A DNA stretch of 64,000 nucleotides from an uncultured Candidatus Rokubacteria bacterium (GTDB taxonomy: Bacteria; Methylomirabilota; Methylomirabilia; Rokubacteriales; CSP1-6): the NCBI GenBank assembly GCA_963734175.1, contig CAVTGC010000010.1:252976-316975 (forward strand), given 5' to 3'. Below the pieces are notes generated by a model, which was not told the origin of the DNA, did no database searches, and saw only the letters and a list, made by a program, of their open reading frames with translations. The translations under genes and the position numbers were made by a program. This document shows, piece by piece, positions 12,014-41,224 of the stretch (within the stretch, counting starts at the first letter, position 1; each line of letters opens with the position of its first letter).

Positions 12014-12362
12014 GTCGGGACTCGAGCTCGGCGTATCTGTCATTGAACAGCGTGGCGAGGAGCCGTACCTAACTTCAATCATGAACATGGACGCCGAGAA
12101 CGACGAGGGACCGATCGCTCAGCTCTACCTGCGCGGGTTGATCTTCGCTTCGCCATTGTTGTGGAAAACGTCGTCACGCGTGGTGACCTGAAGCCCGGTC
12201 TCCGAGTCCAACTCTGCGTGCGCACCCAAGTCGCTGTTGCGGCGGGAGCTCGTGGGCACCGAGGTAGTTGCGCAGAGAATCGTTCAGCCCTCTCTGCCAA
12301 CATGAGTGAGACAGTGACCCCCTGGGAGTTTAGAGTCGAGGGCGAGGCAGGATCGGAGAGCG

Positions 12363-12761
12363 ATGAGCGCATTGGAGCAGGCCCTCGGTGGGCCGGCGAT
12401 CGAGGTGGTGGCGAAGGCGACACGGCGGCGGTTCACGTTGGAGTACAAGCGGAAGGTGGTCCGAGAGGCCGACGCCTGTAAGACACCGGGCGCGATCGGG
12501 GCGCTGCTGCGGCGGGAGGGACTGTACTCCTCGCACCTGACGACGTGGCGGGCGGCGCGGGAGCGGGGCGAGTTGGTCGGGGCGCCGAAGCAACGCGGGC
12601 CGGCGCGGCGGGTCGTCGATCCGCGGGACAAGAAACTGGCCGAGCAAGCGCGGGAGATCAGCCGGTGGCAGAAGCGTGCCGAGCGAGCTGAGGCGCTGGT
12701 GGCCCTGCAAAAACAAGTGGCGGCGTTGCTGGGAACGCCGTTGGTCGACGAGACCTCGTGA
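12363..12761 (+). CDS. IS3-family transposase OrfA (HTH)
   Basis: MSALEQALGGPAIEVVAKATRRRFTLEYKRKVVREADACKTPGAIGALLRREGLYSSHLTTWR… Its stop overlaps the orfB ATG (GTGATGG). Confidence 0.9.
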   Translation: MSALEQALGGPAIEVVAKATRRRFTLEYKRKVVREADACKTPGAIGALLRREGLYSSHLTTWRAARERGELVGAPKQRGPARRVVDPRDKKLAEQAREISRWQKRAERAEALVALQKQVAALLGTPLVDETS

Positions 12762-13768
12762 TGGCGACGGTCGCCCAGATCGGGCCACGGCTGGGCATCG
12801 CTCCCACGTGCGCGGCGCTCGGGCTGCCCCGCGCCACGTACTATCGTCGACGTCGGCCCGCGCGCGCCGCGCCACCGCGGCGGCGGTCGCCTCGGGCCCT
12901 CGGCGAGAGCGAACGCGCGGCCGTGCTCGAGCAGTTGCATACGCCGCGCTTCGTGGACCTGGCGCCGGGCGAGGTCTATGCCACCCTGCTCGACGAGGGC
13001 CGATATCTGTGTTCCGAGCGGACGATGTATCGCGTCCTGGCCGCGCACGCCGAGGTGCGGGAGCGGCGCGCTCAGCTCCGGCATCCTGTCTATGCTGCCC
13101 CGGAGCTGCTGGCCCGTCGCCCCAACGAGCTGTGGAGCTGGGACATCACCAAGCTTCTCGGGCCCGTGAAGTGGACCTACTTCTACCTCTACGTCATGCT
13201 CGACGTCTTCAGCCGGTACGTGGTCGGCTGGATGGTGGCTCATCGCGAGAGCGCGACCCTGGCTGAGCAGTTCATCCGCGAGACCTGTGCGCGCCAAGCC
13301 ATCGTGCGCGAGCAGCTCACGGTCCACGCCGATCGCGGGTCGGCGATGACCTCGAAGCCCGTCGCCCTGTTGCTCGCGGATCTCGGCGTCACCAAGACGC
13401 ATGGCCGGCCGCACGTGTCGAACGACAACCCGTTCTCCGAGGCCCAGTTCAAGACGCTGAAGTACCGCCCGGCCTTCCCGGGGCGCTTCGGGTCGATCCA
13501 GGACGCGCGGGCGCACTGCCACGTCTTCTTCCCCTGGTACAACACCGAGCACCATCACACCGGACTCGGCCTGTTGACGCCCGCCGACGTGCACCACGGT
13601 TTGGCCGAGCAGCGCATCGCGGTGCGCGCGACCGTGCTCGCCACGGCCTACACGGCGCATCCCGAGCGATTTTCTGCGGGCCTTCCGGTCCCGGCGGCGA
13701 TGCCGACCGAAGTCTGGATCAACCCCCCAACGCGCCGTGCGCTCGCGGAGGTGGCGCTCACTCACTAA
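12758..13768 (+). CDS. IS3-family transposase OrfB (rve integrase core, DDE)
   Basis: …WSWDITKLLGPVKWTYFYLYVMLDVFSRYVVGWMVAHRES…HADRGSAMTS…HGRPHVSNDNPFSEAQFKTLKYRP… The 493-aa minus-strand ORF 12284..13765 is its antisense shadow. Confidence 0.9.
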   Translation: MMATVAQIGPRLGIAPTCAALGLPRATYYRRRRPARAAPPRRRSPRALGESERAAVLEQLHTPRFVDLAPGEVYATLLDEGRYLCSERTMYRVLAAHAEVRERRAQLRHPVYAAPELLARRPNELWSWDITKLLGPVKWTYFYLYVMLDVFSRYVVGWMVAHRESATLAEQFIRETCARQAIVREQLTVHADRGSAMTSKPVALLLADLGVTKTHGRPHVSNDNPFSEAQFKTLKYRPAFPGRFGSIQDARAHCHVFFPWYNTEHHHTGLGLLTPADVHHGLAEQRIAVRATVLATAYTAHPERFSAGLPVPAAMPTEVWINPPTRRALAEVALTH

Positions 13769-13826
13769 ACTCGAGACCCGACTGTCTCATTCTTGTTGAC
13801 AGGCTCCGCAGTGCCACCATCCGCTC

Positions 13827-14222
13827 GTGATCGAATTGCCACCGGCCGACACCTTCGATCAGTTCCTAGCCCTCGCGGAGCTGGCCAGAGAGGTACGCCG
13901 GTCGGCTGAGTGGGCACGAGCGGGTCGTAGACGCTCGATCCACGGCGCGAGCGACATTGGGCAGACCGATATCGCCGGCCTCATCCAAGCCAAGCTCGCG
14001 GCTGGTCTGCTGCCTCGCGCAAGGCCAGAGAGGACGTGGGTCGGCTTTGGGTCAGGCAAGGCTTGCGACGCATGCGAGCAGTCGATCACGGGGCAGAACC
14101 GCGAGATCGAGTTCGATGACCAAGGCTTGGGCACGATCCGGCTTCATGTCCTCTGCCTGGCGATGTGGCAGATCGAACGGGTCAAGGAGACCCTTCACGG
14201 TAGCGGCGGCGCGGCGGCGTGA
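13827..14222 (+). CDS. Small C-terminal zinc-ribbon protein, sub-family A
   Basis: MIELPPADTFDQFLALAELAREVRRSAEWARAGRRRSIHGASDIGQTDIAGLIQAKLAAGLLPRARPERTWVGFGSGKACDACEQSITGQNREIEFDDQGLGTIRLHVLCLAMWQIERVK. It is about 70% identical to 42525..42950. The GTG start lies 18 bp after the IS3 right end. Confidence 0.55.
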   Translation: MIELPPADTFDQFLALAELAREVRRSAEWARAGRRRSIHGASDIGQTDIAGLIQAKLAAGLLPRARPERTWVGFGSGKACDACEQSITGQNREIEFDDQGLGTIRLHVLCLAMWQIERVKETLHGSGGAAA

Positions 14223-14428
14223 GGCAGTAGCCGGCAGTCAACGAGCAGCGATCAGACTGGCCGTGCGCACATCGAAGCCTGCCACCGCGAGGGGGCGCGC
14301 CATGCTGTAGCGCGCGTCAGGGCGGTCATCAACTACCAATACCAACACCGTGAGCCAGGTGCCAGGCATGGGACTCTCGGCATTGTAGAGCGAGCCGGTG
14401 GGGCGCGGCCAACCGCGTTCTCACCGGC

Positions 14429-14827
14429 ATGTGCATTGGGGCATCGTCATCCATATTGGTCGAAGATGACCCGGACGCCCTCGCCTTGTTCAGGGCGATC
14501 TTGGAGTACGAGGGGGCGCTGGTGATGTCGACCCCAGCGGCGCAGCCGGCGCTGGAGCTGTTGGGCCGCATCCGGCCCGATGTCCTGGTGTCCGACGTGC
14601 AGATGCCCGACCGGAACGGCGCCTGGCTGGTGGCCGAGGCCCGTCATCGTGGCCTGCTCCAGGGCGTCCCCGCCGTGGTTGTGACCGCAGCGGCCATGAC
14701 GCGGGAGCAGGTACACCGAGCCGGGTTCGACGCCTATCTGCGCAAGCCCGTCGAGCCGAAGCTGCTATGGCAGACGGTCTACTCATTGGCGCGTCCCGTG
14801 AGCCTAGCGCCCAGCCTCCGGAACTGA
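14429..14827 (+). CDS. Single-domain response regulator (REC)
   Basis: …[24 protein letters not shown]…[19 protein letters not shown]…[28 protein letters not shown]…. Confidence 0.8.
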
Positions 14828-14857
14828 GTCGCGCGCGTCGACTTCACTGAGCCCAGA

Positions 14858-15275
14858 GTGCACTCGTCGGCACCTAAGTCACCATTCGATGGGCTTTCCA
14901 TTGCCGGCGTCCAGCCGGCTGCCAAGGGCCCGGCCGAGTACTTCACCGGCACCGTCCGTATCGACGTTGTTCGGCGCGAAGGATACGGCACCTTTTTCAG
15001 GCCTTTGAGCCGGCCGCCGGCTCTGCCTGGCACACGCACCCCGCGGGTCAGCATCTGATCGTCACGTTCGGCGTGGGCTGGACGCAGGAGTGGGGCGGGC
15101 CGGTCGTGGAGGTCCGCGCTGGCGATGTCGTCTGCTGGTGTCCGCCGGGCGTGAAGCACTGGCACGGCGCGACGCCGACGACGGCATGACGCACGTCGCG
15201 CTGACGGGAACGGCCGGTGGCAAGAGCGTGGACTGGCTCGAGAAGGTCAGCGACGAGCAGTACAGGAAGCGATAG
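14858..15275 (+). pseudogene. Cupin-domain protein with at least 2 frameshifts
   Basis: …[12 protein letters not shown]… / …[53 protein letters not shown] / [27 protein letters not shown] is spread over three frames. One break sits at a T5 run near 14990. Confidence 0.6.
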
Positions 15276-15380
15276 CGCCGGACGCCAAGGTGCAAGCACG
15301 CGCTGCGCATGCGAACGCGGCGGGGCGCATTGTTGGGCGTTCTCGCTCGATCGAGCGTAGCGGGCGAGGAGGTAGGCACG

Positions 15381-15733
15381 ATGAGGATCCGGCTGACGTT
15401 CGATGGGAAGGCCGTCGAGGGAACGTTGACGGACAATGCGACAGCCCGCGACCTTCTTTCTCTGCTGCCGATGACGCGCACGCTCGAGGACTACAACGGC
15501 ACCGAGAAGATCGGCTATCCACCGAGGAAGCTGTCAACAGCCGGCGCTCCCGCCGGCATCGATCCGTCCATCGGCGATGTCACCTACTACGGCCCTTGGG
15601 GTAACCTGGCCATCTTCTATTAGGATTTCGGCTACTCCAGAGGGCTCATCGGGCTGGGCCGGATTGATTCGGGCATCGACGCGCTGAGCGTGCCCGGCTC
15701 GCTGAAGGTCACGATCGAGCGGGTACGGAAGTG
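15381..15733 (+). pseudogene. Cyclophilin-like-fold family protein interrupted by an in-frame TAG
   Basis: [116 protein letters not shown]. The stop at 15621-15623 sits where homologues have Lys (FYKDF). GAGGAGG lies upstream of the ATG. Confidence 0.6.
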
Positions 15734-15743
15734 AGAGGCTGCG

Positions 15744-16500
15744 TTGAAGGCAGTTGGAATGGAGCAAGACATGGCGACGAATCGGACCGGAAACTTCGCA
15801 GGGAAGGTCGCGTTCTTGACTGGAGCCGCGAGTGGCACCGGGGGCGCGGCGGCGCTGGCGTTCGTCCGCGAGGGGGTCAGCGTGGTAGCCGTCGACGTCT
15901 CGGAACAGGCCAACCAGGAAACGGGCCGCATGATCGAGAAACTTGGGGGGCGGGCGCTCGCCAGCCGGTGCGACGTGACGCGGGGCGAGAACGTGAGGCG
16001 GCTGTCGACAAGACGGCCGCGACGTTCGGGCGGCTGACTTCGCCTTCAACAATGCGGGCATTGAGCCGAGGAACCCGGCTCCGACCGCGGAGTACGAGGA
16101 GGGCGAGTGGAACCGGATCCTCGAGCATGAAGTACGAGAGCACGTTCATCCTGAAGCAGGGAGGTGGCGCGATCGTCAACACGTCGTCCGGCGCAGGGAT
16201 CATCGGCATCAAGGGCAGCCCCGCGTACACCGCTGCGAAGCATGCCGTGATCGGCGTGACCCGGGCGCCGGCCCTCGACGATGCGGCGCAGAACATCCGT
16301 ATCAACGCCATCTGCCCGGCTACATCGATACCCCGATGATGGATCGCTTCACCACGGGTCGAGAAAGCGTTGGCGGGAGCGCGTCTTGACCCGACCACGC
16401 TTCGCCGGGCAGCGGCGCTCGCCACGCGCGGCGCGCGCGGGTTCGGGCACAACGACTTCAAGATCAAGCTCATGCAGCGCGTGATCGTGCGCGGCATCGA
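15744..16500 (+). pseudogene. Short-chain dehydrogenase/reductase (SDR) with multiple frameshifts
   Basis: N-terminus GKVAFLTGAASGTGGAAALAFVREGVSVVAVDVS. The catalytic region …GGGAIVNTSSGAGIIGIKGSPAYTAAKHAVIGVTRAPALDDAAQNIRINAICP… is in another frame and …YIDTPMMDRF… in a third. Confidence 0.65.
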
Positions 16501-16515
16501 AACCGGAGCTCATAC

Positions 16516-16940
16516 ATGACAACACCCCTGGTCGGACGAGCCGTCAGCCGCGTCGACGGGCCGCAAAAGGTGACCGGCATCGCCTCCTACGCCGCGGTCT
16601 TCCACGTACCGAACGTCGCGCACGGCGCCATCGTGCGGAGCACTGTCGCCAGCGGCCGCATCGCGACGATCGATAGCGGGCCGCCGAGCGAGCGGCGGCG
16701 TGATCGCCGTCGTGACTCGCCGCAACGCCCCGCGGCTCGCCTATCGGCCCCACAAGGGAGTGGTCGATCCCGATGTGGGCGAGCGGCTGCACGTGCTCCA
16801 GGACGATCGGCTCAGCCACCAGGGAAGTCGCACACTGGCTGGTGCGCTCGTAGGCCGGCTGCGCTGGCGAGTCGTCCTGCGTGAAAGGGCCAGCCAGCCC
16901 GCGCTCAGCAGCCCGCGAGGTTCCCCGCGACCGCTCTAGT
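16516..16940 (+). pseudogene. N-terminal fragment of a xanthine-dehydrogenase/aldehyde-oxidase family molybdopterin-binding subunit
   Basis: MTTPLVGRAVSRVDGPQKVTGIASYAAVFHVPNVAHGAIVRSTVASGRIATIDS…, then a frameshift (…GVIAVVTRRNAPRLAY…). Only about 130 of the expected ~750 aa are present. Confidence 0.5.
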
Positions 16941-17065
16941 CGTGCCCGGACGTTGCCTGGTCGTGGCAAAATGTGGATGTCTTACTGCACTCGGGGCTCC
17001 GCTTGAGGAAGACCGTGTCAGCGCGCGCGCCGGCTGTGGTTCAATAGCAGGAACACATCGTTCCG

Positions 17066-17389
17066 TCACGTGGGCTTGAGTCCTAGCAACGCATCCTGTC
17101 GGCCGCATCGCGAGCATTTTCCGTCGGCGAAGCCATACGCGGCACTCAGTCCTAGCTCGATGGTCGCAAGCGTGACAGCCTCGACTGTGAGATGCAGCTG
17201 CCTACCAAGACATCCGACGCAGAATCGCGCCGGGTGGTTGTCCCGGAGAAATGCGGCCAGCTTTTCCGTCTCACGCATCGCCGCCCGTTGGCCCCGGTCG
17301 CTACGGATGAGCAACGTTTCAGGTGCTTCGGCGTCAGACCATGTCCAGGGTCGCGTATCGGAGTGCCATGGTACTACGCGTGGCGGCAA
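17066..17389 (-). CDS. Hypothetical Cys-containing protein (…ARFCVGCLGRQL…GKCSRCGRQ…)
   Basis: ORF only. Confidence 0.25.
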   Translation of the reverse strand: MPPRVVPWHSDTRPWTWSDAEAPETLLIRSDRGQRAAMRETEKLAAFLRDNHPARFCVGCLGRQLHLTVEAVTLATIELGLSAAYGFADGKCSRCGRQDALLGLKPT

Positions 17390-17417
17390 ACCGTTGCGTC
17401 ATGATATAAGGAAAAAG

Positions 17418-17450
17418 TTTTCCCAGGCGCCCGGGCGCGCGCTGGGAAAA
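17418..17450. promoter_or_regulatory. Strong palindrome ttttcccag-gcgcccgggcgcgcg-ctgggaaaa about 80 bp upstream of hypF. It is an operator-like site or a bidirectional terminator hairpin.
   Basis: 9-bp perfect arms around a GC-palindromic core, flanked by A/T runs (gaaaaag… …tgttttccc). Confidence 0.45.
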
Positions 17451-17531
17451 TGTTTTCCCATCTGATTTAGAAGTGACGGCGACCGTCCGACGACGTAGAA
17501 TTTAGCGCGCGGCGGGACCGCCGCATTTCTC

Positions 17532-19870
17532 ATGCCGGGAGCAACGATGCTCCGATACAACGTCGCAGCGAACGCCGGTACTCGACGTGCGGTTGCCATC
17601 AGCGGCATCGTGCAGGGCGTCGGATTCCGTCCCTTCGTGCACGGGCTGGCCTGCGCCCTCGGTTTGCGGGGCTTCGTGCGGAATGCCGCGGGTGGCATTG
17701 AAATCGAAGTCGAGGGCGAAGTCGCGGCAATCGAGCGGTTCCTCGCAGAGCTCAATACTCGTAAGCCGCCGCGGGCCCGGATTGATTCGGTGTCCACGTT
17801 GCCCCGCCTCGCGCGCGGCGATGATGATTTTAGGATCGAGGCGAGCGCCGTCGACGTGCAAGGAGCCGTCTCCGTGTCGCCGGACATCGCGACGTGCGAT
17901 GACTGCCTAAGGGAGCTGTTCGATCCCGCGGACAGGCGGTATCGATACCCGTTCATCAACTGTGCGCAGTGCGGACCCCGCCTGACGATCGTCAGGACTG
18001 CTCCGTACGATCGCCAGCGTACGACCATGAGCGGGTTCGACATGTGCGCGCAGTGCCGCGCCGAGTACGATGACTCGCGCGACCGACGCTTTCACGCCGA
18101 GGCTATCGCCTGTTCGTCGTGCGGGCCGCGTCTGCGGCTCCTCGATGGTGCAGGCCGCCTCATGCACTCCCAGGATCCGCTTGCGGAGGCGATTGCCGCG
18201 CTGCGAAGCGGTGGCATTATCGCGGTGAAGGGGCTCGGAGGCTTTCACCTCGTGTGTGATGCCTATGACGTCGCTGCAGTGTCGGAGCTGCGCCGGCGTA
18301 AGCTGCGCGACGAGAAGCCGCTCGCGCTCATGGCGCGCGACCTCGCCGCGGCGGGTGAACTCGGCGAGATCTCCGACTCGGAGCGGCGGGCGCTGACGCT
18401 ACCGGCGAGGCCGATCGTGCTCTTGCGAGCACGATCGGATGCTCCGGTAGCGACCGCGGTGGCGACGGGGCTCGCGGTTCTCGGGGTCATGCTGCCGTAT
18501 ACCCCCGTTCATCACCTGATCCTGAGCGACATGCCCCATGCGGTGGTGATGACGAGCGGCAACCGCTCCGGTGAACCGCTCGTCCGCGAGGATGCGGAAG
18601 CGTCGGCCCGCCTGGCCGGCATCGCCGACGTCGTGCTGACGAACGATCGGGGGATCGAGACCCGGTGCGACGATTCGGTCGTTCGGGTCATTGGCCCTGG
18701 AATTTCATGGGTGCGACGATCGCGTGGCGAGGCCCCGCGGGGACTGTCGCTCCGCACGCCATTGGCCCGTCCCACACTGGCGCTCGGTGGCCATCTCAAG
18801 GCCGCGATCGCGCTTGGCGACGGACGGCGCGTGGTGCCCAGTCACCATCTCGGGGACCTCGACGAGTACCAGACGTATCGCGCGTACACGGACGCCATCG
18901 CACACTACCAGCGGCTGTTTCGGATCGCGCCACAACGCATCGTCCACGATCTGCATCCGGATTACGCCTCGACGCGATACGCCATCGAGCTTGCCAAGGA
19001 AACGGGTATGGAGCTGCTGGCCGTCCAGCATCATCACGCTCACATGGCGAGCTGCATGGCCGAGCATGGCTTGGCGGGGCCGGTGATCGGCGTCTGCTTC
19101 GACGGCACCGGCTGGGGCGCCGACGGCGCGATCTGGGGCGGCGAGTTCCTGGTCGGTGACGACAGCAGACTTCCGGCGCGCCGCGCATTTCAGCTACGTC
19201 GGTATGCCCGGCGGCGAGGCCGCCGTTCGCGAGCCGTGGCGCATGGCGGTGGCGCATCTCATCGCACGCCGGGGCGGCCGTCGAAACGCCCATCGCTGCG
19301 CGTCGATGCCGGACGCCGACGCACCGTGCGAGCGAATGCTCGAGCGAGGCTTCAACGCGCCGCTGACGTCGAGCGCCGGGCGGCTGTTCGATGCCGTCGC
19401 CGCGCTGGCGGGAGTCTGTGAGCGCGCCGAGCTATCGAGGGGCAGGCGGCCATGATGCTGGAGTCGCTGGCCCGCGGCGTCAGGCCGGCCGGGGCGTATC
19501 CCTTCGAGCTCGCCACCGGGTCGGATGCGCTGGTGATCGATCAGCGGCCGCTCATCCGAGCGGTCGCGGCCGACGTGCGCAAGGGCATCGGCGCCAGCCG
19601 TCATTGCCCGCCGATTCCACTCGACGATGGCCGAGGTCATCGTCGCCGTGTGCGAGCGGATCCGCGCCAGCGAGGGCGTCGATCGGTGTCGTCCTGAGCG
19701 GCGGCGTGTTCGTGAACGCCATCCTCGCGCGGAGAAGCGAGCGACGCGTTGCGAAGATCGGGGTTTCATGCCTTACCAGCACGTCAGCGTGCCCGCCAAC
19801 GACGGCGGTCTCTGCCTCGGGCAGCTCGCCATCGCGGCGGCGCGCGACGCGTCGGAGACGCGGTCATCAC
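17532..19870 (+). pseudogene. hypF: [NiFe]-hydrogenase maturation carbamoyltransferase HypF, frameshifted near 19150, 19450 and 19620
   Basis: Acylphosphatase motif (IVQGVGFRPFV), two zinc-finger pairs (CDDC…CAQCGPR ; CAQC…CSSCGPR), a YrdC-like region (IIAVKGLGGFHLVCDA), and a Kae1-like carbamoyltransferase domain. C-terminal segments (…FSYVGMPGGEAAVREPWRMAVAHL… ; …NDGGLCLGQLAIAAA) lie in other frames. Confidence 0.85.
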
Positions 19871-19872
19871 TG

Positions 19873-20121
19873 ATGTGCCTCGGCATCCCTGGCCGCGCTG
19901 GTCGAGACCTTCGCGAGCACGACGTGCTGATGGGCAAGGTCGACTTCGGCGGCGTGACGAAGCGGGTGTGCCTCGAGCACGTGCCCGACGTCCAGCCTGG
20001 CGACTACGTCCTCGTCCACGTCGGCTTCGCCCTCACGCGACTCGACGAGGCGGAAGCCGGCCGCGTCTTCGAGTTCCTCGAAGCCGATGAACCAGCTCGA
20101 CGAGCTGAGCGAGACCTCACC

Positions 20122-20125
<4 letters not shown>
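19873..20125 (+). CDS. hypC: Hydrogenase maturation factor HypC, with a possible 1-nt indel near the 3' end
   Basis: MCLGIPGRAGRDLREHDVLMGKVDFGGVTKRVCLEHVPDVQPGDYVLVHVGFALTRLDEAEAGRVFEFLE… The neighbouring frame ends …NQLDELSETSP*, with its TGA overlapping the hypD GTG (GTGA). Confidence 0.75.
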
Positions 20126-21244
<1,119 letters not shown>

Positions 21245-21245
<1 letters not shown>

Positions 21246-21836
21246 TGAGCAGTCTCTCGGCCGCCGATCACCCGCGAAGTCGCGCGAGAGCGCGGCCACG
21301 AGCGAGACGTTCTTCACGCGGAGGCCGACCGCATCGTCGCCTGTGCGCGTGCCATGGCCGCCGCTTTCGACGCCGGCGGGCGGCTGTTCGTCATGGGCAA
21401 CGGCGGCAGCGCGTGCGACGCGCAGCACGTCGCCGTCGAGTTCATGCACCCGATCATCGAGAAGCGCCGGCCGCTGCCGGCGATGGCGCTGGCCACCGAC
21501 ACCGCGCTGCTCACCGCCGTCGGCAACGACAGGACTTCTCCCTGGCGTTCTCCGAGCAGCTGCGGATCCTCGCCCGGCGCGGAGACATGGCGCTCGGGAT
21601 CTCGACGAGCGGAAAGTCGCGCCAACGTCATCCGCGCGCTCGGCGGCCGCGCGAGACTCGGACTGCTGACCGTCGGCTTCGCCGGCCGCGACGGCGGCCG
21701 AATGCCGGAGCTCTGCGACCACTGCTTCATGGTCCCGAGCTTCAGCATCCACCGCATCCAGGAGACGCACGCGACGCTCCTCCACGTCCTCTGGGATCTC
21801 GTTCACGTGATCCGCGGCGAGGAGGACGTCATGTGA
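21245..21836 (+). pseudogene. SIS-domain (GmhA/phosphoheptose-isomerase-like) protein, frameshifted, inside the hyp cluster
   Basis: …DVLHAEADRIVACARAMAAAFDAGGRLFVMGNGGSACDAQHVAVEFMHPIIEKRRPLPAMALATDTALLTAVGND / YDFSLAFSEQLRILARRGDMALGISTSGKS / ANVIRAL… / …LGLLTVGFAGRDGGRMPELCDHCFMVPSFSIHRIQETHATLLHVLWDLVHVIRGEE. Confidence 0.55.
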
Positions 21837-22882
21837 GCGATCCGCTGGGCTCGTGTCCGCTGCCGTATCGACCAATACGACCGCATCGTGCTCGGCCACG
21901 GCAGCGGCGGGCGGCTGACGGCCGACCTCGTGAACGCGTCTTCCTGCCGGCCTTTCGGAACGAGATGCTGGCAGCGCTCGAGGATCAGGCGACAGTCCGC
22001 GGTCAACGGCGGCACACGGCTGGCGATCACCACCGACGCGTTCGTGGTGCGGCCGCTTTTCTTTCCCGGCGGCGACATCGGACGCCTGGCCGTCCACGGC
22101 ACGGTGAACGACCTCGCCGTCGGCGGCGCCGAGCCCGCTGTACCTGTCGGCCGCGTTCATCCTCGAGGAAGGGCTCGCGCTTGGCGAACTGCAGCGGGTC
22201 GTCGCCTCGATGCGCGCCGCGTGCGCCGAGGCCGGCGTGACGCTGGTGACCGGCGACACCAAGGTGGTCGACCGCGGCAAGGGCGACAAGGTCTTCATCA
22301 CCACCACCGGCATCGGATTCGTCCCGGGCGAGCGGTCGCTCTCGATTGCCGCTGCGCGCCCGGGCGACCGCGTGATCGTGTCCGGCACGATCGGCGATCA
22401 CGGCATCGCGATCATGTCGGTGCGCGAGGGGCTCGAGTTCGAGACGTGCTGGAGAGCGACAGTGCGCCGCTGACCGATCTCGTTCGCGCGTTGCTCGAAG
22501 CGTCGGCCGGAGTCCGCTGCATGCGCGATCCGACGCGGGGCGGGCTGGCGAGCGCGCTCAACGAGCTCGCGGCCGCCTCGCGGGTCGGCGTGACGCTCGA
22601 CGAGGCGGCGATCCCGCTCCGACCCGAGGTGCGGGCGCCTGCGAGATGCTCGGGCTCGATCCGCTCTACGTCGCGAACGAGGGAAAGCTGGTCGCCGTCG
22701 TGCCGGCCGCCGAGGCCGACCGGGTGCTCGCCGCGATGCGGGCGCATCCGCTCGGCCGCGATGCCGCGATCATCGGCGAGATCGTCGCCGAGCACCCGGG
22801 CATGGTCACCCTGCGTACGCGCATCGGCGGGGAGCGCGTCGTGACGCTGCTGGCCGGCGAACAGCTGCCGAGGATCTGTTGA
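21833..22882 (+). pseudogene. hypE: Hydrogenase maturation factor HypE with multiple frameshifts
   Basis: VSDPLGSCPLPY… / IDQYDRIVLGHGSGGRLTADLVNA / …VFLPAFRNEMLAALEDQA… / …[40 protein letters not shown] / …[37 protein letters not shown]…[27 protein letters not shown] / …[11 protein letters not shown]…MRDPTRGGLASALNELAAAS… / …LGLDPLYVANEGKLVAVVP…GEQLPRIC*. Confidence 0.8.
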
Positions 22883-23933
22883 TGAACGACCCGATCGAGC
22901 AGCATCGACGTCCTCTGGATCACCGCCGGCCTCGAGCTGCGACGGCGACACGATCGCCATCACCGCCGCGACGCAGCCGAGCATCGAGGACCTCGTCCTC
23001 GGGGCGATCCCGGGCATGCCCAAGGTGCGGCTCTCACAATCCCGTGCTCGCCTACGAGAACGGCGACGAGTTCATGCAGCCACTTTCACGACGCCGCCGC
23101 CGGCGCGGCTCGACCCGTTCATCCTCGTGGTCGAGGGCTCGATCCCGAACGAGAAGAACAAGCCGGAGGGCTACTGGGCCGGCTTCGGCGTCGATCGATG
23201 CGACCGGCCAGCCGATCACGACCTGCGAGTGGATCGACCGGCTGGCGCCGCAGGCCTGGGCGGTCGTGGCCGCGGGCACCTGCGCGACCTACGGCGGCAT
23301 TCACGCCATGGCGGGCAATCCGACCGGCGCGATGGGCCTGGCCGACTATCTCGGCTGGCAGTGGCAGTCGAAGGCCGGCATCCCGATCGTCTGCGTGCCG
23401 GGCTGCCCGGTGCAGCCCGACAACTTCATGGAGACGCTGCTCTACCTGCTACGGCAGGCGGCGGGCACGGCGCCGATGATCCCGCTCGACGACGCGCTGC
23501 GGCCGACGTGGCTGTTCGCGCAGACGGTGCACGAGGGCTGCGATCGCGGCGGCTACTACGAGCAGGCCGACTTCGCGGCCGAGTACGGCTCGCAGCAAGT
23601 GCATCGTGAAGCTCGGCTGCTGGGGGCCGGTGGTGCAGTGCAACGTCGCCAAGCGCGGCTGGATGAACGGCATCGGCGGCTGCCCCAACGTCGGCGGCGT
23701 CTGCATCGGCTGCACGATGCCCGGCTTCCCCGACAAGTTCATGCCGTTCATGGACGAGCCGCCCGGGCGCGAAGATGTCGACCTCGGCCGTCCTCATGTA
23801 CGGCCGCACGGTGCGCGCGCTGCGCAACTTCACCAAGACGTCGCTCGACCAGCGAGCCGGCCTGGCGGCAGCCGCGGCGCCGCAGCCGAGGAAGCTGATC
23901 CATGGCCGAGCGGACAAGAACCTCGTCGAGATG
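22882..23933 (+). pseudogene. [NiFe]-hydrogenase small subunit with frameshifts. The 3' boundary is ambiguous.
   Basis: …INVLWITAGLE… / …HNPVLAYENGDEFMQP… / …RLDPFILVVEGSIPNEKNKPEGYWAGFGVD… / …PITTCEWIDRLAPQAWAVVAAGTCATYGGIHAMAGNPTGAMGLADYLGWQWQSKAGIPIVCVPGCPVQPDNFMETLLYLL… / …KLGCWGPVVQCNVAKRGWMNGIGGCPNVGGVCIGCTMPGFPDKFMPFMDEPPG…. Confidence 0.75.
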
Positions 23934-29569: not shown

Positions 29570-29570
29570 C

Positions 29571-32311: not shown

Positions 32312-32739
32312 ATGAGCCGAGGGTCTCAAATGGCGGAACCTCTTGCCGGTATCTCGGTGCTTGTGGTCGACGACGACGACGACGCTCGTGAGTTGACAGA
32401 GATCGCCTTGCGTCAGGTCGGCACGACGGTACGGTCAGCGTCGAGCGCCATGGAGGCCCTCGAGCTCATCAAGGCCGCCATCCCCGCTGTCGTGGTTGCC
32501 GACATGGCCATGCCGCAGCACGATGGCACGTGGCTCCTTCGGGAAGTGCGGTGTCTTCAGAGTGCTCGGACGATCCCGTTTATCGTTTCACGGCGCTCGC
32601 CATGGCCCACGACAGGCAACGCATACTTGCTGCCGGATTCGCCGACCACATCATCAAACCCGCGGACCCAGACGAAGTAGTCAAGGCGATTGTGCTAGTC
32701 ACGGCCTCGACGAAGAGTACCCGCGGCAAAGAGCAATAG
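32312..32739 (+). pseudogene. Single-domain response regulator (REC) with a 1-nt deletion in a T-run near 32578
   Basis: …ISVLVVDDDDDARELTEIALRQVGTTVRSASSAMEALELIKAAIPAVVVADMAMPQHDGTWLLREVR… The C-terminus …FTALAMAHDRQRILAAGFADHIIKPADPDEVVKAIV… is in the +1 frame. The expected gttttcacg appears as gtttcacg. Confidence 0.7.
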
Positions 32740-33498
32740 CTATCGAGGTCGCCGTCGCGCGGTAAGATGCTGCGCCTCGATCCACAGTTGCGTGTCATCG
32801 AAGCCGACCGTGACTGTCGCGTCGCTCGCAAGCCAGGTGGCCTCCTTCGCATCGATCAAGGAAAATCTCGGTGGCGTCGATGTTTTGCCGCAACGGTCGC
32901 AGGGGAATCCGGCCGAGTCTTGAGCCCCGCGAGTAGCGAACGCCGCCGTTAGGCTGATTGCGCAAGCGCGGCCAGATTCACAGAGTGCATGGGAGACGCG
33001 GTGAGGAGTTCTCGCGTGTCGCCATGCGATCTGTGCAGCTTCCTTGATATGCTCCCCATGCGCGTTCCTTCAGCGGCCGCCCAGCCAGGCGGCGCGGTGG
33101 TTGTCATCTGCACGAGTGGAATAATGCGCCATTTGTCTTGTCTCAATGAATCGGGACGCGACCCACCTGCGCCCACTGCCAAAAAGCTGACGATGGCCGG
33201 GGGAAGCAACCGCCTTCCGGTCCCATGTATCGGTTGTGACAGCGAGCGCCTTTGGCTGCCGCGCTCCTGGACAAAGCGGACGCGGCAAACGCGAGGCTGC
33301 CGCCTATGACGCGGAATGGGTGGGCGAGCGGGACTTCGCGGCGCTTTCGCACTGGTTTGGCGACGTGGGCGCCGAAGCGGTGCCCGCGAGCGCGGCCGCG
33401 GCGCAGGACGTCGACGACTGGCTCGACAGCCTGCTCGATACATTGGGCCACAGCATGACCGCGGCCCAGCCCACTCGGCAACTCAGGGTCTTGCTACC

Positions 33499-33744
33499 AT
33501 GAACGCAACGGCCCCGGACATCGTCCTCCTCAGCCTGGATCTTCGAGGCATCAGGGGACTTGACGCACTGCCCGTCCTCCGGCATTACCATCCGACCGTC
33601 CCCATCATCGCGGTGACAGCCAGGCTGGATCCGCTCACAGAACGGCAAGCGCGGAGCCTGGGCGCCTTCGATGTGTTGCTCGCTCCGGTGGAGATTGACC
33701 GACTAGCCGCGGCCCTCGAGCGTGCGACTGAGCACCGTTCCTAG
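33499..33744 (+). CDS. Receiver-like fragment of 81 aa
   Basis: MNATAPDIVLLSLDLRGIRGLDALPVLRHYHPTVPIIAVTARLDPLTERQARSLGAFDVLLAPVEIDRL. This is REC-like, but it lacks the N-terminal acidic pocket and has Ser at the phospho-Asp position. Confidence 0.3.
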   Translation: MNATAPDIVLLSLDLRGIRGLDALPVLRHYHPTVPIIAVTARLDPLTERQARSLGAFDVLLAPVEIDRLAAALERATEHRS

Positions 33745-33806: not shown

Positions 33807-34440
33807 TCATCGTGCAGAAGCGTCCGGACGCGCTCCTGGTACCAGGGGGATCGAGTGTTCCTGACCACGCGCGTGCGGATGTGCAGTTTGCGGCCCAAAC
33901 GGCGCTTGCCAGGCATGTATGCGTACCGGGAACTCGTCGAGGCGGGCGGCCTTGCTTCCTTTGGGCGAACTACGCGGCCATGCACAGGCGTGCCGCCTAC
34001 TATGTGGACGCCGGCGTGTAGCTCGTGAACATGGCATCGACCTTCGCAATGACGAGTGCCCGCGCGAGAGCCCGAAACTGCTCAACCCGCCCCTCCAAGA
34101 AGCGGCGCTCGAAGATGACATTCCGCCCCTCGACCCACCCGGCGTCGCGAGACCCCTCGACGAAGCGTCCCTGGCCGGCGTGGCTCCAGGCACACCGTCG
34201 AGATGGCAGATTGGGGCCGGCTTCTTTGCTTGCGCATGTTGCACCGCAGCTTCGAGCGGCGCTGCGAGGTCGCCAGCCAGGGAGGTCAGCAGGATGCGGC
34301 GGCGATTCACTACTCGATCACCTGATCCGCCCGTGCTAGCAGCGAGGGCGGGATCGTCAGGCCGAGCGCCGTGGCGGTCTTTTGAGGTTGTTGACGAGTT
34401 CGAACGTCGTTGGTCCCTTGACTGGTAGATCGCCGGGTTT
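33807..34440 (-). pseudogene. Remnant of a PF04392 substrate-binding-protein tandem junction (3' end of one copy plus the Tat-signal 5' end of the next)
   Basis: 34322-34440 is a degraded copy of the …TIPPSLLARADQVIE* 3' end seen in the array at 47417-51355. It is followed directly by MNRRRILLTSLAG…. The rest of the gene is unrecognisable. Confidence 0.4.
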
Positions 34441-35720: not shown

Positions 35721-36359
35721 TCAGCTCGACCAACCAATTGACGGAACACTCCGTAGCCCCGCCCGGACCTCCACGGCTTCTCCACTCGCCAGCGCGGGCA
35801 ACACCTCCGCCAGCTCCTCGACCGGCAGCGCCGCATCGACCCCGTCGCGTGTGATGGCGTTCACCGGCATGGTCGCGTGGCGCGCCTGCTGCGGATGCTG
35901 CACGAGCGAGAGTCCTCCACCATTCTTGACGGCGATCAGGCCGCGCACCCCATCCACCCCGGTGCCGCTCAGCACGACGCCGACGACCCTGGGCCCGAAT
36001 GCCCGCGCCGCGCTCACGAACAGCGGATCCACAGCTGGACGCGTGTGATGCTCGCGCGGGCCCCCGCTGAGGCGTAGACGCCGATCCTCGATGAGCAGGT
36101 GCCGATCGCGGGGAGCGATGTAGATCGCGCCCGGACGCAGTCGCTCGCCCTCCTGGGCTTCCTGTACGGGGAGCGCCGCGCGACGGCCGAGCACCTCGGC
36201 GAGTCGTCCCTCGAATGTGGGGCTGCGGTGCAGCACGACGGCCATCGTGGCCTCGAGGTCGGGCGGCAGCCGCGCAAACAGCGCCATCAGTGCCTCGATC
36301 CCGCCCGCCGATGCCCCGATCACGACCACATCGCGACGGATCCCGTCGGCGTTCAGCAT
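35721..36359 (-). CDS. CheB-type protein-glutamate methylesterase catalytic domain with no receiver domain
   Basis: MLNADGIRRDVVVIGASAGGIEALMALFARLPPDLEATMAVVLHRSPTFEGRLAEVLGRRAALPV…RPGAIYIAPRDRHLLIE…TRPAVDPLFVSAARAFGPRVVGVVLSGTGVDGVRGLIAVKNGGGLSLVQHP…. Confidence 0.75.
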   Translation of the reverse strand: MLNADGIRRDVVVIGASAGGIEALMALFARLPPDLEATMAVVLHRSPTFEGRLAEVLGRRAALPVQEAQEGERLRPGAIYIAPRDRHLLIEDRRLRLSGGPREHHTRPAVDPLFVSAARAFGPRVVGVVLSGTGVDGVRGLIAVKNGGGLSLVQHPQQARHATMPVNAITRDGVDAALPVEELAEVLPALASGEAVEVRAGLRSVPSIGWSS

Positions 36360-36769
36360 GTCCGGATCGGCTCCTGGTCCACGCCTAGGGCGAGAGGGCG
36401 GTTGGCCATGGCCACACGGCGGACTGTCTCGGAATCTGCTTCCAACCGGGCGACTCGCTCCTTGAGGTCCTCGGACGGACAGGGATTGCGGTACGGCTCT
36501 CCGAGCCGCAGCAGGTCCTGTCCGAGGGTTCGCAGCTCCTCGAGCCGGGTGACCGCCACCCACAGGCAGCGCTCGACGGCCTCCTCCTTCGCCGCCAAGA
36601 GGCTTTCCAGGGCGAAGGCGTGACCGATCCTGCAGCGGAAGCTGAGGTACCCGCCGTCGCCCTCGGCGCGGACGGTCAGGGATCCCCCGCAATCGGGACA
36701 GGCCACGCCGGTGAGCGCGGGGCGCGGCCCAACCCTCGGCAGTGCGCGCACAGGCTCGAATTCAGCCAT
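36353..36769 (-). CDS. Zinc-ribbon protein translationally coupled to the CheB methylesterase (ATGCTGA overlap)
   Basis: MAEFEPVRALPRVGPRPALTGVACPDCGGSLTVRAEGDGGYLSFRCRIGHAFALESLLAAKEEAVERCLWVAVTRLEEL…. Confidence 0.45.
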   Translation of the reverse strand: MAEFEPVRALPRVGPRPALTGVACPDCGGSLTVRAEGDGGYLSFRCRIGHAFALESLLAAKEEAVERCLWVAVTRLEELRTLGQDLLRLGEPYRNPCPSEDLKERVARLEADSETVRRVAMANRPLALGVDQEPIRTC

Positions 36770-37276: not shown

Positions 37277-38444
37277 TGTCCAGACTCGAAATGGTGTTGA
37301 CACTTCCGCGGTCCCAGAGTGGTGGTGAATGAGCTCATTGTGTGGCCACGCCCCAAACGAGCGCGGCCGGGGTACGACCGCGGACGCGATAGCCTTGGTG
37401 AGGCCGGTCGTGGTTGTAGTAGCGCATGAAGCCGTCGAGGGCTCGCTGCAGCGTCGCGCGACGCGTGAAATAGCGGCGACGGAAGACGACGCGCCAGAGT
37501 TCCTGGAGAATCGTGCCCTGCAGGCGTTCGACGAAGCCGTTGGTCCAGGCATGACGCGGTTTCGTGCGCGTATGGCGGAGGCGGAGCTCGCGGCAGGCCC
37601 CATCAAAGGCGCCCTTGAATTCCGGGCCACCATCGGTGAGCACGCGCCGCACCGGCCAGCCCGCGCGCTGGAAGTGCGGCACCACGACCTCGCGCAGGAA
37701 GCGGGCGGCGGCGGCCGCGTCGTGGGCGGGCAGCAGGCCGGCCAGCCCGTAAGAGGTCGCCGCGTCGCACGCGGTGATCTGCCACACCTTGCCCACGCCT
37801 TTGAGGTTGCCGATGTAGAAGGTGTCCAGACACACCAGCTGGCCCGGCTCCGTGGCCTCGACGTGCCGCGTGCGGCCGTGACGGGCCCGCCAGAGCTTCT
37901 CCCGGGTGCGGTCCGTGAGCAGCCCCGCCGTCCGGGCGGCCTGCTGCTCGAGCACCGTCAGGCGCGCTCGGCGCGTGGCCAAACCGACTCGGCGGAGCAG
38001 CCGCTGCACGGTGCTGGGCGCCAGGCGGATCTGCCAGGTGCGCGCCAGGTAGGCCGCCAGGCGGCGACACCCCCAGGTCGCGGCGCTGATCGCAATCCCC
38101 AGCACCAGCCGTTCCACCTCCGGCGGGGTCGCCACCGGCCGCCCCGCGCCGGCGCGCTGCCGCCGGGGATGAACCCCCTCGACGCCATAGCGTTCCAGCC
38201 GTTGGCGCCAGCGGTAAAACAGGGTCCGGGAGATGCCCAGCTCGCGGCAGACGGCGCTGACGTTGCCGAGCACCTGCGCCCGCTCGATGACGCGCAGGCG
38301 CATTCCGTGTACGCTCTCGTCGAGGGTCATCGGTCCGTCCTCCCACAGTGGTTCCCTTGGCGGGGTAAGCACTCTGGGAAAGATAGAGCCGATGGCCTTC
38401 TTGTTCGTTCACGGCAAGTGTCAACACTATTTCGAGTCCGGACA
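37277..38444 (-). mobile_element. IS481-family insertion sequence, copy A, 1168 bp
   Basis: Terminal inverted repeats TGTCCaGACTCGAAATgGTGTTGACAC… Flanked by the 8-bp direct repeat CTCTAGCT (37269-37276 and 38445-38452). Confidence 0.9.
37335..38372 (-). CDS. IS481-family transposase (HTH plus rve/DDE integrase core), 345 aa
   Basis: …LFYRWRQRLERYGVEGVHPRRQRAG…QLVCLDTFYIGNLKGVGKVWQITACDAATS…VLTDGGPEFKG…HTRTKPRHAWTNGFVERLQGTI…YNHDRPHQGY…. Confidence 0.9.
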   Translation of the reverse strand: MLTPPREPLWEDGPMTLDESVHGMRLRVIERAQVLGNVSAVCRELGISRTLFYRWRQRLERYGVEGVHPRRQRAGAGRPVATPPEVERLVLGIAISAATWGCRRLAAYLARTWQIRLAPSTVQRLLRRVGLATRRARLTVLEQQAARTAGLLTDRTREKLWRARHGRTRHVEATEPGQLVCLDTFYIGNLKGVGKVWQITACDAATSYGLAGLLPAHDAAAAARFLREVVVPHFQRAGWPVRRVLTDGGPEFKGAFDGACRELRLRHTRTKPRHAWTNGFVERLQGTILQELWRVVFRRRYFTRRATLQRALDGFMRYYNHDRPHQGYRVRGRTPAALVWGVATQ

Positions 38445-38534: not shown

Positions 38535-38834
38535 CTAGCCGACTCGTATAAACGTCTCATCGCACGCATGGCAGATCCAGATCCACTCCTCCGGGCTGCC
38601 CCCAGCCCCCGTGTGAGAAACATCACTAGACATGCAGTCGGAGTTCGGGCAGCGACTCTTCATGGTACGGCGCTGAGGCTTGTCCTGGTCCATCGGTTCC
38701 CCTATCACCGGCTGCCCTCTCTCCGCACCGACGCGGAGGTCGAAATTGTGGGTCATCGTCGTTTCGGCCTTCGGCTTCCTCCGCCGACCACCTCCGACGT
38801 TAGCTAGCCGCAGCGACTCCGTCCAGCCCTGCAT
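38535..38834 (-). CDS. Small 4-Cys zinc-ribbon-like protein (…SRCPNSDC…WIWICHACDETFIRVG)
   Basis: ORF only. It sits directly downstream of a sub-family B gene. Confidence 0.3.
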   Translation of the reverse strand: MQGWTESLRLANVGGGRRRKPKAETTMTHNFDLRVGAERGQPVIGEPMDQDKPQRRTMKSRCPNSDCMSSDVSHTGAGGSPEEWIWICHACDETFIRVG

Positions 38835-39231
38835 CGGGCCAGAGGTTCAGGCACTTGGGATGGAAGAACACCTTGATGGCGGACGCGAGGACGACGTCGA
38901 ACTCCATCTCGCCCATGCCAATGATCGTGCCGCAGGCAATGCAGGCGTGCGTCTCACGACAGGGACCGGCCCACACGCGCGCCGGCCGGGTTAGCGGAAG
39001 AACACCGCGCTGGACGAGCCCCCGAAGCCTTTCCAGGACCGCGGCTTTATTGGGAGGCGTCTCTCCACCGCCGCGGATCAAGCGTTGCCGAGTGAGGACG
39101 ACCTTGGTGAGCGCAAGCAGCCACTCGCTGCGGTCAAGGACGGAGAGACTGCGGCTGCAGTGGGCAAGGCTTCTGAGTCGTCGGGTAGCAGCTCGCCCGA
39201 CTCGTTCCTCGACTGAGGCGCTCTGGGTCAT
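38800..39231 (-). CDS. Small C-terminal zinc-ribbon protein, sub-family B
   Basis: Internal Met (MTQSASVEERVGRAATRRL…) of ORF 38800..39405. Its C-terminus aligns with 7311..7634. Confidence 0.5.
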   Translation of the reverse strand: MTQSASVEERVGRAATRRLRSLAHCSRSLSVLDRSEWLLALTKVVLTRQRLIRGGGETPPNKAAVLERLRGLVQRGVLPLTRPARVWAGPCRETHACIACGTIIGMGEMEFDVVLASAIKVFFHPKCLNLWPDAGLDGVAAAS

Positions 39232-39736
39232 GCGCCGATTCCTCCAGAGGCAACGCAGAGTAGCAAAAACGGCCGCGAGCGTAGGATCGTCTGCCCCCCT
39301 CCGGACGCCACACCGCTCTTCGCCGCCGCCGGCTCGACGCGCTGACGACCCCGGCTCCCCGACCTGGCGATCAAACCACTTCTTCGATCCGATCAGCCGC
39401 GACATCCGGTTCGAGCAGCCTGTTGAACGGAAGCGGCCAGGGCGGGAGGTGCGTCGGCGGCGTCAGCCTGAGAGGCTCGCGACTCGCCTTTCTGCAGTAA
39501 TGACGATGCTGGTGCCATGTCGCGCGATGCTGCCCGGATGCTGCGAGTATGCCCACGTCTCTGGCCCAGCAGTACCATGGCATCGCAGCCGCCATCTTAC
39601 GCGGTCAGCTATCCGGTGCGAGGTGGCGGTTCACTCTGACTCGTGAAACGCGATCCATGCGCCCTCTCTGCCAACATGAGTGAGACAGTGACCCCCTGGG
39701 AGTTTAGAGTCGAGGGCGAGGCAGGATCGGAGAGCG

Positions 39737-40135
39737 ATGAGCGCATTGGAGCAGGCCCTCGGTGGGCCGGCGATCGAGGTGGTGGCGAAGGCGACACGGC
39801 GGCGGTTCACGTTGGAGTACAAGCGGAAGGTGGTCCGAGAGGCCGACGCCTGTAAGACACCGGGCGCGATCGGGGCGCTGCTGCGGCGGGAGGGACTGTA
39901 CTCCTCGCACCTGACGACGTGGCGGGCGGCGCGGGAGCGGGGCGAGTTGGTCGGGGCGCCGAAGCAACGCGGGCCGGCGCGGCGGGTCGTCGATCCGCGG
40001 GACAAGAAACTGGCCGAGCAAGCGCGGGAGATCAGCCGGTGGCAGAAGCGTGCCGAGCGAGCTGAGGCGCTGGTGGCCCTGCAAAAACAAGTGGCGGCGT
40101 TGCTGGGAACGCCGTTGGTCGACGAGACCTCGTGA
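39737..40135 (+). CDS. IS3-family transposase OrfA
   Basis: Identical to 12363..12761. Confidence 0.9.
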   Translation: MSALEQALGGPAIEVVAKATRRRFTLEYKRKVVREADACKTPGAIGALLRREGLYSSHLTTWRAARERGELVGAPKQRGPARRVVDPRDKKLAEQAREISRWQKRAERAEALVALQKQVAALLGTPLVDETS

Positions 40136-41142
40136 TGGCGACGGTCGCCCAGATCGGGCCACGGCTGGGCATCGCTCCCACGTGCGCGGCGCTCGGGCTG
40201 CCCCGCGCCACGTACTATCGTCGACGTCGGCCCGCGCGCGCCGCGCCACCGCGGCGGCGGTCGCCTCGGGCCCTCGGCGAGAGCGAACGCGCGGCCGTGC
40301 TCGAGCAGTTGCATACGCCGCGCTTCGTGGACCTGGCGCCGGGCGAGGTCTATGCCACCCTGCTCGACGAGGGCCGATATCTGTGTTCCGAGCGGACGAT
40401 GTATCGCGTCCTGGCCGCGCACGCCGAGGTGCGGGAGCGGCGCGCTCAGCTCCGGCATCCTGTCTATGCTGCCCCGGAGCTGCTGGCCCGTCGCCCCAAC
40501 GAGCTGTGGAGCTGGGACATCACCAAGCTTCTCGGGCCCGTGAAGTGGACCTACTTCTACCTCTACGTCATGCTCGACGTCTTCAGCCGGTACGTGGTCG
40601 GCTGGATGGTGGCTCATCGCGAGAGCGCGACCCTGGCTGAGCAGTTCATCCGCGAGACCTGTGCGCGCCAAGCCATCGTGCGCGAGCAGCTCACGGTCCA
40701 CGCCGATCGCGGGTCGGCGATGACCTCGAAGCCCGTCGCCCTGTTGCTCGCGGATCTCGGCGTCACCAAGACGCATGGCCGGCCGCACGTGTCGAACGAC
40801 AACCCGTTCTCCGAGGCCCAGTTCAAGACGCTGAAGTACCGCCCGGCCTTCCCGGGGCGCTTCGGGTCGATCCAGGACGCGCGGGCGCACTGCCACGTCT
40901 TCTTCCCCTGGTACAACACCGAGCACCATCACACCGGACTCGGCCTGTTGACGCCCGCCGACGTGCACCACGGTTTGGCCGAGCAGCGCATCGCGGTGCG
41001 CGCGACCGTGCTCGCCACGGCCTACACGGCGCATCCCGAGCGATTTTCTGCGGGCCTTCCGGTCCCGGCGGCGATGCCGACCGAAGTCTGGATCAACCCC
41101 CCAACGCGCCGTGCGCTCGCGGAGGTGGCGCTCACTCACTAA
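40132..41142 (+). CDS. IS3-family transposase OrfB
   Basis: Identical to 12758..13768. Confidence 0.9.
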   Translation: MMATVAQIGPRLGIAPTCAALGLPRATYYRRRRPARAAPPRRRSPRALGESERAAVLEQLHTPRFVDLAPGEVYATLLDEGRYLCSERTMYRVLAAHAEVRERRAQLRHPVYAAPELLARRPNELWSWDITKLLGPVKWTYFYLYVMLDVFSRYVVGWMVAHRESATLAEQFIRETCARQAIVREQLTVHADRGSAMTSKPVALLLADLGVTKTHGRPHVSNDNPFSEAQFKTLKYRPAFPGRFGSIQDARAHCHVFFPWYNTEHHHTGLGLLTPADVHHGLAEQRIAVRATVLATAYTAHPERFSAGLPVPAAMPTEVWINPPTRRALAEVALTH

Positions 41143-41224
41143 ACTCGAGACCCGACTGTCTCATTCTTGTTGACAGGCTCCGCGCGCCTGAACCGACAAC
41201 TCCGCGTGGACTGAGTCGGCTACT

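Follow-up and report, generated by a model that had tools for sequence, protein, structure and literature searches.

Identical direct copies of an IS3-family element around a group 1h [NiFe]-hydrogenase cluster in a Rokubacteria contig probably arrived separately

In Burkholderia thailandensis E264, a pair of IS2-like insertion sequences (IS) mobilises 210 kb as a 'megacircle'; this composite was created by the late and independent insertion of an IS at one end, no target duplication was observed following its moves, and IS3-family transposition itself proceeds by a copy-out-paste-in route through circles (PMC6350997). Direct IS copies likewise enclose cargo in the pseudo-compound transposons and translocatable units of IS26 and in the ISApl1-mcr-1 unit Tn6330, which arise and break down as individual IS copies are gained and lost (PMC4196232, PMC5821093). 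In Antarctic soils, genes of group 1h [NiFe]-hydrogenases reportedly rank among those that are transferred most frequently (PMC13554262). On plasmid pMpar-2 of Methylocystis parvus OBBP, an annotated group 1h and hyp cluster (8806-27486) is enclosed by two IS6-family transposase genes on the same strand, a third copy lying close by, so that there is precedent for hydrogenase clusters bracketed by IS. Here we describe a 64,000-nucleotide stretch (hereafter the window) from an uncultured Candidatus Rokubacteria bacterium (GenBank assembly GCA_963734175.1, contig CAVTGC010000010.1, positions 252,976 to 316,975), in which two identical copies of an IS3-family element in direct orientation, IS-A and IS-B, flank such a cluster. 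An earlier note on the window had described this arrangement as a composite-transposon-like unit. We conclude that the pair probably consists of separate arrivals of one active IS3-family element in an accessory, IS-rich part of the chromosome of a soil bacterium, and that by chance they bracket the group 1h cluster.

The two sites share an exact block of 1,523 bp on the same strand (12287-13809 and 39661-41183; offset 27,374 bp). We set the ends of the element from 16 related metagenome copies, with transposases 90-95% identical, and from one DNA-identical copy on ENA contig_13277 (assembly ERZ25039588): conservation across these 17 copies starts at CCCTCTC and stops at GGCTCCG, and the adjoining bases vary. 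With these ends the IS proper is 1,521 bp long, IS-A occupying 12288..13808 and IS-B 39662..41182 on the plus strand, the latter flanked by ATGCG on its left and CGCGCC on its right; the one extra base that matches on each side in both copies is a coincidence or a target preference. The elements of 1524 bp that the earlier note had called base-for-base identical were placed 1-2 bases off, so that the strings at those positions differ, but identity does hold over the 1,521 bp. Within the window the 27-nt IS ends occur only at these two sites, with 0 expected by chance, and the whole unit of IS, cargo, and IS measures 28,895 bp, with an interior of 25,853 bp.

The element carries two genes. OrfA (132 aa, 12363-12761) has a weak HTH_Tnp_1 match, below the Pfam cut-off, and OrfB (335 aa, 12761-13768) lies in the -1 frame relative to orfA, in a frame that is open from 12692; the orfB ATG overlaps the orfA stop (ATGA), and the relatives carry the same pair of 132-aa and 335-aa genes. 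OrfB scores 173 bits against the NCBIfam IS3 model NF033516 (cut-off 160) and matches Pfam rve with E = 4.8e-23, which, together with the 0/-1 frames and the same-strand copies, bears out the earlier assignment of both copies to the IS3 type in the same orientation. The orfA frame contains no X XXY YYZ heptamer as a slippery site, and, unlike IS3-family models, the element lacks the canonical A6G; an A5 run is present at 12709-12713 in the 70-nt overlap. The terminal inverted repeats are imperfect, matching at 20 of 28 bp, or at 19 of 22 when counted from position 7. IS3-family ends are usually TG...CA, whereas the outermost bases here are CCCTCTC and GGCTCCG and the TG...CA sits inside them, the element reaching 7 bases past it at each end as judged from the 17 other copies.

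A 3-bp target duplication is the rule for this element: it is CAG at IS-A, a perfect CGG at the third DNA-identical copy, on contig_13277, and TGG at a 90% relative on an 18-kb contig. Among metagenome copies on short contigs the duplication is missing in 10 of 11 and only this relative is usable, presumably as a result of chimeric joins across the repeat in short-read assemblies. With three identical copies, one of them polymorphic, the IS is evidently active; its relatives number thousands in metagenomes at 82-95% protein identity, and the nearest annotated plasmid relatives stand at 65-70% DNA identity.

IS-A is an ordinary IS3-type insertion in codon 12/13 of a 148-aa zinc-ribbon gene, with CAG duplicated at 12285-12287 on the left and 13809-13811 on the right (a 3-bp match at fixed ends has a chance of 0.022 in the window sequence). 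The gene is split after codon 12 into 12252-12287 and 13812-14222 on the plus strand, and a 131-aa open reading frame (ORF) persists downstream of the IS from a GTG at 13827. When the IS and one CAG are taken out, the two parts join into a 447-nt ORF, and the reconstructed site aligns with a paralogous zinc-ribbon gene (42525-42950) at 78% identity over 436 nt, gapless across the junction; left of the junction 13 of 20 bases match the paralogue, as do 0.03% of window 20-mers (P ~3e-4). An identical copy of the window's Hsp20 (11549-12013) is encoded on a Logan contig of 2,109 bp from run ERR11571147; measured from the Hsp20 stop, the 148-aa gene of that contig extends from +239 to +685 and its next gene starts at +892. 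Subtracting 1,524 bp (the IS and one copy of the duplication) from the window gives offsets of exactly +239, +685, and +892, the last being the start of the receiver gene at 14429. The uninterrupted allele of the site is present in another sample, and the insertion is recent enough to be missing from a near-identical strain there. Because IS-A has its own 3-bp duplication and its flanks are the halves of one gene, it is an independent insertion, and because that gene is intact elsewhere, the inner flank of IS-A did not arrive as cargo. An exact-pattern scan of metagenome contigs for the empty-site junction gave 0 matches, and two Hsp20 relatives were set aside as a further test, as their homology stops 20 nt past the Hsp20 stop, before the IS-A site.

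The window as a whole holds five delimited IS copies of two families, as well as a transposase gene of a third, IS5-like family, so that some IS pair bracketing something is to be expected within 64 kb. Three IS481-family copies lie at 37277-38444 (minus strand, 1,168 bp, inside the IS-bounded block), 44826-45993 (plus strand), and 59812-60979 (minus strand), with 4 substitutions and 0 indels between them. Each has a perfect and private 8-bp duplication, AGCTAGAG (element orientation), GGCTAGTG, and CTCTAGGG, respectively, of the form NNCTAGNG with a CTAG core; since these duplications are intact, the elements sit where they landed. Their transposase scores 232 bits against NF033577 (cut-off 224), and IS481 itself prefers CTAG targets. 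The IS5/IS1182-like transposase gene (DUF772 + DDE_Tnp_1) occupies 5882-7327 on the minus strand, and a 95-nt, 76%-identical match at 63543-64000 suggests a second, diverged copy. As marks of an island boundary, we found no tRNA and no Rfam matches in the window; GC content is mildly raised over the hydrogenase genes (0.68-0.71 vs 0.60-0.66).

IS-B lies in the intergenic spacer between two minus-strand genes (38800-39405 and 41225-41677), and is preceded by GCG and followed by CGC. It could be a second simple insertion, in which case a GCG duplication would be hidden by one spurious base, given that a perfect GCG would reappear if the single C at position 41183 were dropped and that the suspect inserted bases described below most commonly sit in the context G[C]G. 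It could instead be a copy that later underwent recombination with another one at a different place in the genome: an exchange between two IS copies, through inversion, translocation, or adjacent deletion, would have joined non-contiguous DNA and made this edge of the block a rearrangement scar. We regard such an exchange as possible, though somewhat doubtful; it would account for the mismatch at IS-B when two other identical copies and one 90% relative have perfect 3-bp duplications, and paralogous modules nearby are shuffled between the window and contig_13277, but we know of no partner with the reciprocal flanks, CGC to the left and GCG to the right, and the hidden GCG points the other way. 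That the contig was mis-joined through the repeat, leaving the block not bounded as drawn, is improbable and the least likely of the three: the missing duplication, the approximately 61 probable consensus indels in the sequence, and the naming of a sister contig, which suggests a long-read metagenome assembly, are all compatible with an artefact, but typical long reads exceed a repeat of 1.5 kb in length, and five other IS junction pairs (IS-A, the copy on contig_13277, and the three IS481 copies) are all perfect. By exact look-up, with alternative starts included, the proteins on either side of IS-B were found only on the source contig, and an exact-pattern scan of metagenome contigs for the left flank gave 0 matches.

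On contig_13277 (2247-9448), the third identical IS3 copy lies inside a mosaic of paralogues of window segments. Its receivers resemble those at 33.4-33.75 kb and 10.47-10.82 kb and its Hsp20 resembles that at 11.3-11.9 kb; after the Hsp20 come the IS and then DNA 90% identical to window 43.8-44.18 kb, so that sequence like that left of IS-A and sequence like that right of IS-B are only ~2 kb apart. This locus is either paralogous, or orthologous and lacking the 30-kb block.

Two IS copies with intact outer ends around cargo are present, and we infer that the pair is a composite transposon by architecture only, on which deletion or mobilisation might act. The 28.9-kb unit as a whole did not enter its present site in a single transposition. 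The triplets at its outer edges differ (CAG to the left of IS-A, CGC to the right of IS-B), and the signature of an en-bloc insertion is missing; this, along with the duplication private to IS-A, agrees with the earlier view that there had been no simple recent en-bloc transposition. That view had been based on a failure to find target-site duplications, which holds for IS-B and for the outer flanks but not for IS-A with its clean CAG; likewise, independent insertions with their own duplications, named beforehand as contrary evidence, are seen at IS-A and not at IS-B. The account of the block as composite-transposon-like is thus apt as a description of architecture, but nothing indicates that the unit has moved. 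Given that IS-A has its own duplication, that the outer flanks are mismatched, and that the region is dense in IS that sit where they inserted, we interpret the pair as independent insertions. It remains conceivable that a true composite inserted en bloc, IS pair and cargo together, and that its duplication has since eroded: the copies are identical and direct with intact outer ends, group 1h genes are reported among those most often transferred in soils (PMC13554262), and the pMpar-2 cluster is likewise found between same-strand IS genes. We nevertheless hold this to be very improbable, as IS-A, with a duplication of its own, splits a gene that another sample has intact, the outer flanks differ, and no second instance of the unit was found. 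A search for the same unit in a second genomic context returned none in the collections searched, in which close relatives are poorly covered, and relatives of the hydrogenase module, in metagenomes and in Planctomycetota metagenome-assembled genomes (MAGs), carry the cargo without these IS.

Several points weigh against separate arrivals. The empty-site case for IS-A rests on gene coordinates only, those of the ERR11571147 contig, and a letter-for-letter look-up of the reconstructed 148-aa protein in the protein collection gave no match. IS-B has no 3-bp duplication as written, and we looked for a paralogue or relative spanning its site and found none. The closest HypF relatives are only 63-64% identical, so that synteny in close relatives is out of reach, and the many probable consensus errors in the assembly weaken arguments from single bases. 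Lastly, independent arrival of the two ends leaves present-day mobility possible, as in the composite of B. thailandensis. Because the copies are identical and direct, the 27.4-kb interval could conceivably be lost or duplicated through homologous recombination between them, and, by analogy with the IS2-like pair, transposase might excise a circle of IS plus cargo; the sequence holds no trace of either having happened. The earlier statement that the flanking IS can mobilise, delete, or duplicate the segment therefore stands as a possibility in principle. A composite formed in place that is now active, excising as a circle of IS plus cargo and able to spread the hydrogenase cluster, would be in keeping with the copy-out-paste-in route of the family, with the 210-kb precedent (PMC6350997), and with an IS that is evidently active. 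We consider it unlikely, given that no circle junction, duplicate, or second location appears in any collection searched, and that the pair is no different from any two IS copies in an IS-dense region, where the IS481 copies bracket other segments alike.

We give little credence to the 28.9-kb unit as a newly formed, active translocatable element that excises as such a circle. If it were one, the frequent horizontal transfer of group 1h clusters among soil bacteria would have a natural vehicle, the known high rate at which enzymes that oxidise atmospheric hydrogen pass between soil phyla would have a concrete mechanism, and the insertion polymorphism at IS-A would be the unit's birth caught in the act. 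As things stand, this is a routine case of one recent, polymorphic insertion beside a metabolically interesting cluster.

The cargo contains a complete complement of structural and maturation genes for a group 1h [NiFe]-hydrogenase, all on the plus strand and, as deposited, with many frames interrupted by single-base insertions or deletions (indels). It begins with hypF (17532-19860; 5 frame-breaking indels), hypC (19870-20122; 1), hypD (20122-21302; 17), and hypE (~21770-22879; 6), followed by the small subunit (22904 to ~23895; 8-9 indels) and the large subunit (23907-25674; 6 indels), both of group 1h. A NifU-like gene (25671-26222), a DUF5947 gene (26219-26815), a gene for a 378-aa protein (26812-27949), the maturation protease gene (27946-28445), hypA (28438 to ~28780), and hypB (28781-29571) come next, and a PAS/GAF hybrid histidine kinase with a receiver domain (29571-32300), which in relatives is the conserved last gene of the hydrogenase module, closes the series. 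In the corrected frame the large subunit contains the N- and C-terminal nickel-binding CxxC motifs (RICGICGDNH and DPCLPCGVH) and scores 1,144 bits against PDB 5AA5, the next structure scoring 157 bits. Metagenome relatives with large subunits 89-93% identical share the window's gene order over the module from small subunit to kinase, and the Planctomycetota MAGs have hypFCDE and then the subunits, ordered as in the window; the IS is absent from both. In a HypF scan of genome contigs, the best matches, at the identity given above, came from Gemmataceae and Isosphaerales MAGs, in which the cluster is colinear; we looked in these MAGs for conservation upstream of hypF and found none.

The broken reading frames of this cluster most likely represent consensus errors of a long-read assembly, and the status of these genes as pseudogenes is doubtful. 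Frameshift-aware alignment to relatives places ~52 single-base insertions and ~9 single-base deletions between 19.16 and 30.27 kb, that is ~61 indels of which ~85% are insertions, with 17 insertions in hypD alone; as written, hypF, hypC, hypD, hypE, both subunit genes, the 378-aa gene, the protease gene, hypA, hypB, and the kinase gene are broken. The completeness claimed earlier for the hydrogenase and hyp cluster thus applies to its gene content, but not to its reading frames. Most of the indels lie outside homopolymers, and the hydrogenase and hyp genes contain no in-frame stops, whereas natural pseudogene decay favours deletions and homopolymer sites. After removal of its six indels, the large subunit is unchanged at all 244 columns that do not vary in 119 homologues, which themselves average 0.37 changes at such columns. 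We doubt the pseudogenes because the frame-breaking indels come with a strong insertion bias and without substitution decay. Run ERR11571147 contains an identical DUF5947 protein beside intact 378-, 165-, and 114-aa genes, and both IS copies and the window from 33 to 64 kb are clean of such indels. Residual consensus indels of long-read assemblies are known to fragment genes (PMC12007338, PMC8574707).

Clean islands occur within the affected region as well (17.5-19.1, 25.4-27.1, and 30.3-32.3 kb). Two explanations for its extent were rejected: a low-coverage variable segment bounded by IS, given that 19.16-30.27 kb meets no IS boundary, and a dependence of the indels on local GC content (permutation p = 0.17). 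The frame-corrected 378-aa and protease proteins and the NifU-like protein as written have no exact match in the collection, which has no bearing on errors versus real frameshifts. The ~61 indels make a probably functional hydrogenase operon resemble a pseudogene graveyard, and gene-content or pseudogene statistics drawn from the present assembly would mislead.

Other genes fill the remainder of the block. Between IS-A and hypF, on the plus strand, lie a single-domain response regulator (14429-14827; Response_reg profile positions 2-110 of 111) and a series of damaged genes (14986..16950), namely a cupin-like gene, a cyclophilin-like gene, a frameshifted SDR gene, and a xanthine-dehydrogenase-type Mo-subunit gene. 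The cyclophilin-like gene has an in-frame stop (AIFY*DFGY), and the Mo-subunit gene is truncated after ~130 aa (15300-16950); unlike the single-base indels of the hydrogenase genes, these two lesions just upstream of hypF may be genuine remnants. The block of pseudogenes reported here earlier is borne out as to the SDR and xanthine-dehydrogenase fragments and the in-frame stop, subject to the caveat that probable assembly indels pervade the reading frames; the cupin match falls below the Pfam cut-off. Downstream of the cluster come two partial receiver ORFs (32312-32680 and 33316-33744, plus strand) and a CheB methylesterase (35721-36692, minus strand). Profile matches confirm the receiver module, receiver fragments, CheB, and IS481 copy that had been listed inside the block, but of the two sensor kinases listed with them Pfam scans recover only the one at 29571-32300; no second kinase domain was found among most ORFs of at least 75 aa between 32.7 and 37.2 kb.

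A few repeated features of the window are also worth recording. A small zinc-ribbon family (CxxC...HxxC), which has no Pfam or NCBIfam match, occurs on both strands around both IS3 copies, with members at 13827-14222, 38800-39405, 41707-42132, 42525-42950, and ~7351-7598; two of these members each have a single-domain receiver as partner. On the minus strand, 47417-51454 is occupied by four paralogous genes of the ABC_sub_bind type (PF04392), arranged in tandem with a period of ~990 bp and 61-81% identical, and a 154-nt fragment of the same family lies inside the IS-bounded block at 34228-34381. At 992-1266, in a stretch that looks non-coding, a 136-bp unit is duplicated in perfect tandem (2.0 copies, 100% identity).

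Compared with described systems, the cluster resembles the group 1h (formerly group 5) clusters of Cupriavidus necator pHG1, the source of 5AA5, and Methylocystis parvus pMpar-2 in combining NifU-like, DUF5947, protease, and hypA-F genes. Plasmid-borne group 1h copies appear in 13 plasmid records; unlike these, the cluster of the window is chromosomal (on a 338.5-kb contig), lies between IS3-family copies, and has broken frames as deposited. The direct IS copies around cargo recall the IS26 units and Tn6330 (PMC4196232, PMC5821093), which belong to other families (IS6 and IS30) with other mechanisms and recur in many contexts, whereas the unit of the window has been seen once. The E264 megacircle likewise has IS3-family copies at both ends of a large chromosomal cargo, but its circle and relocation were demonstrated by experiment and by excess read depth (PMC6350997), whereas the present pair shows no sign of a circle, extra copies, or movement. 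The element itself shares with IS2, IS3, IS150, and IS911 of the IS3 family its 0/-1 ORFs, an OrfB of the DDE (rve) type, imperfect inverted repeats, a 3-bp duplication, and a length of ~1.5 kb, and what is new here is limited to an uncatalogued, very widespread soil member of that family.

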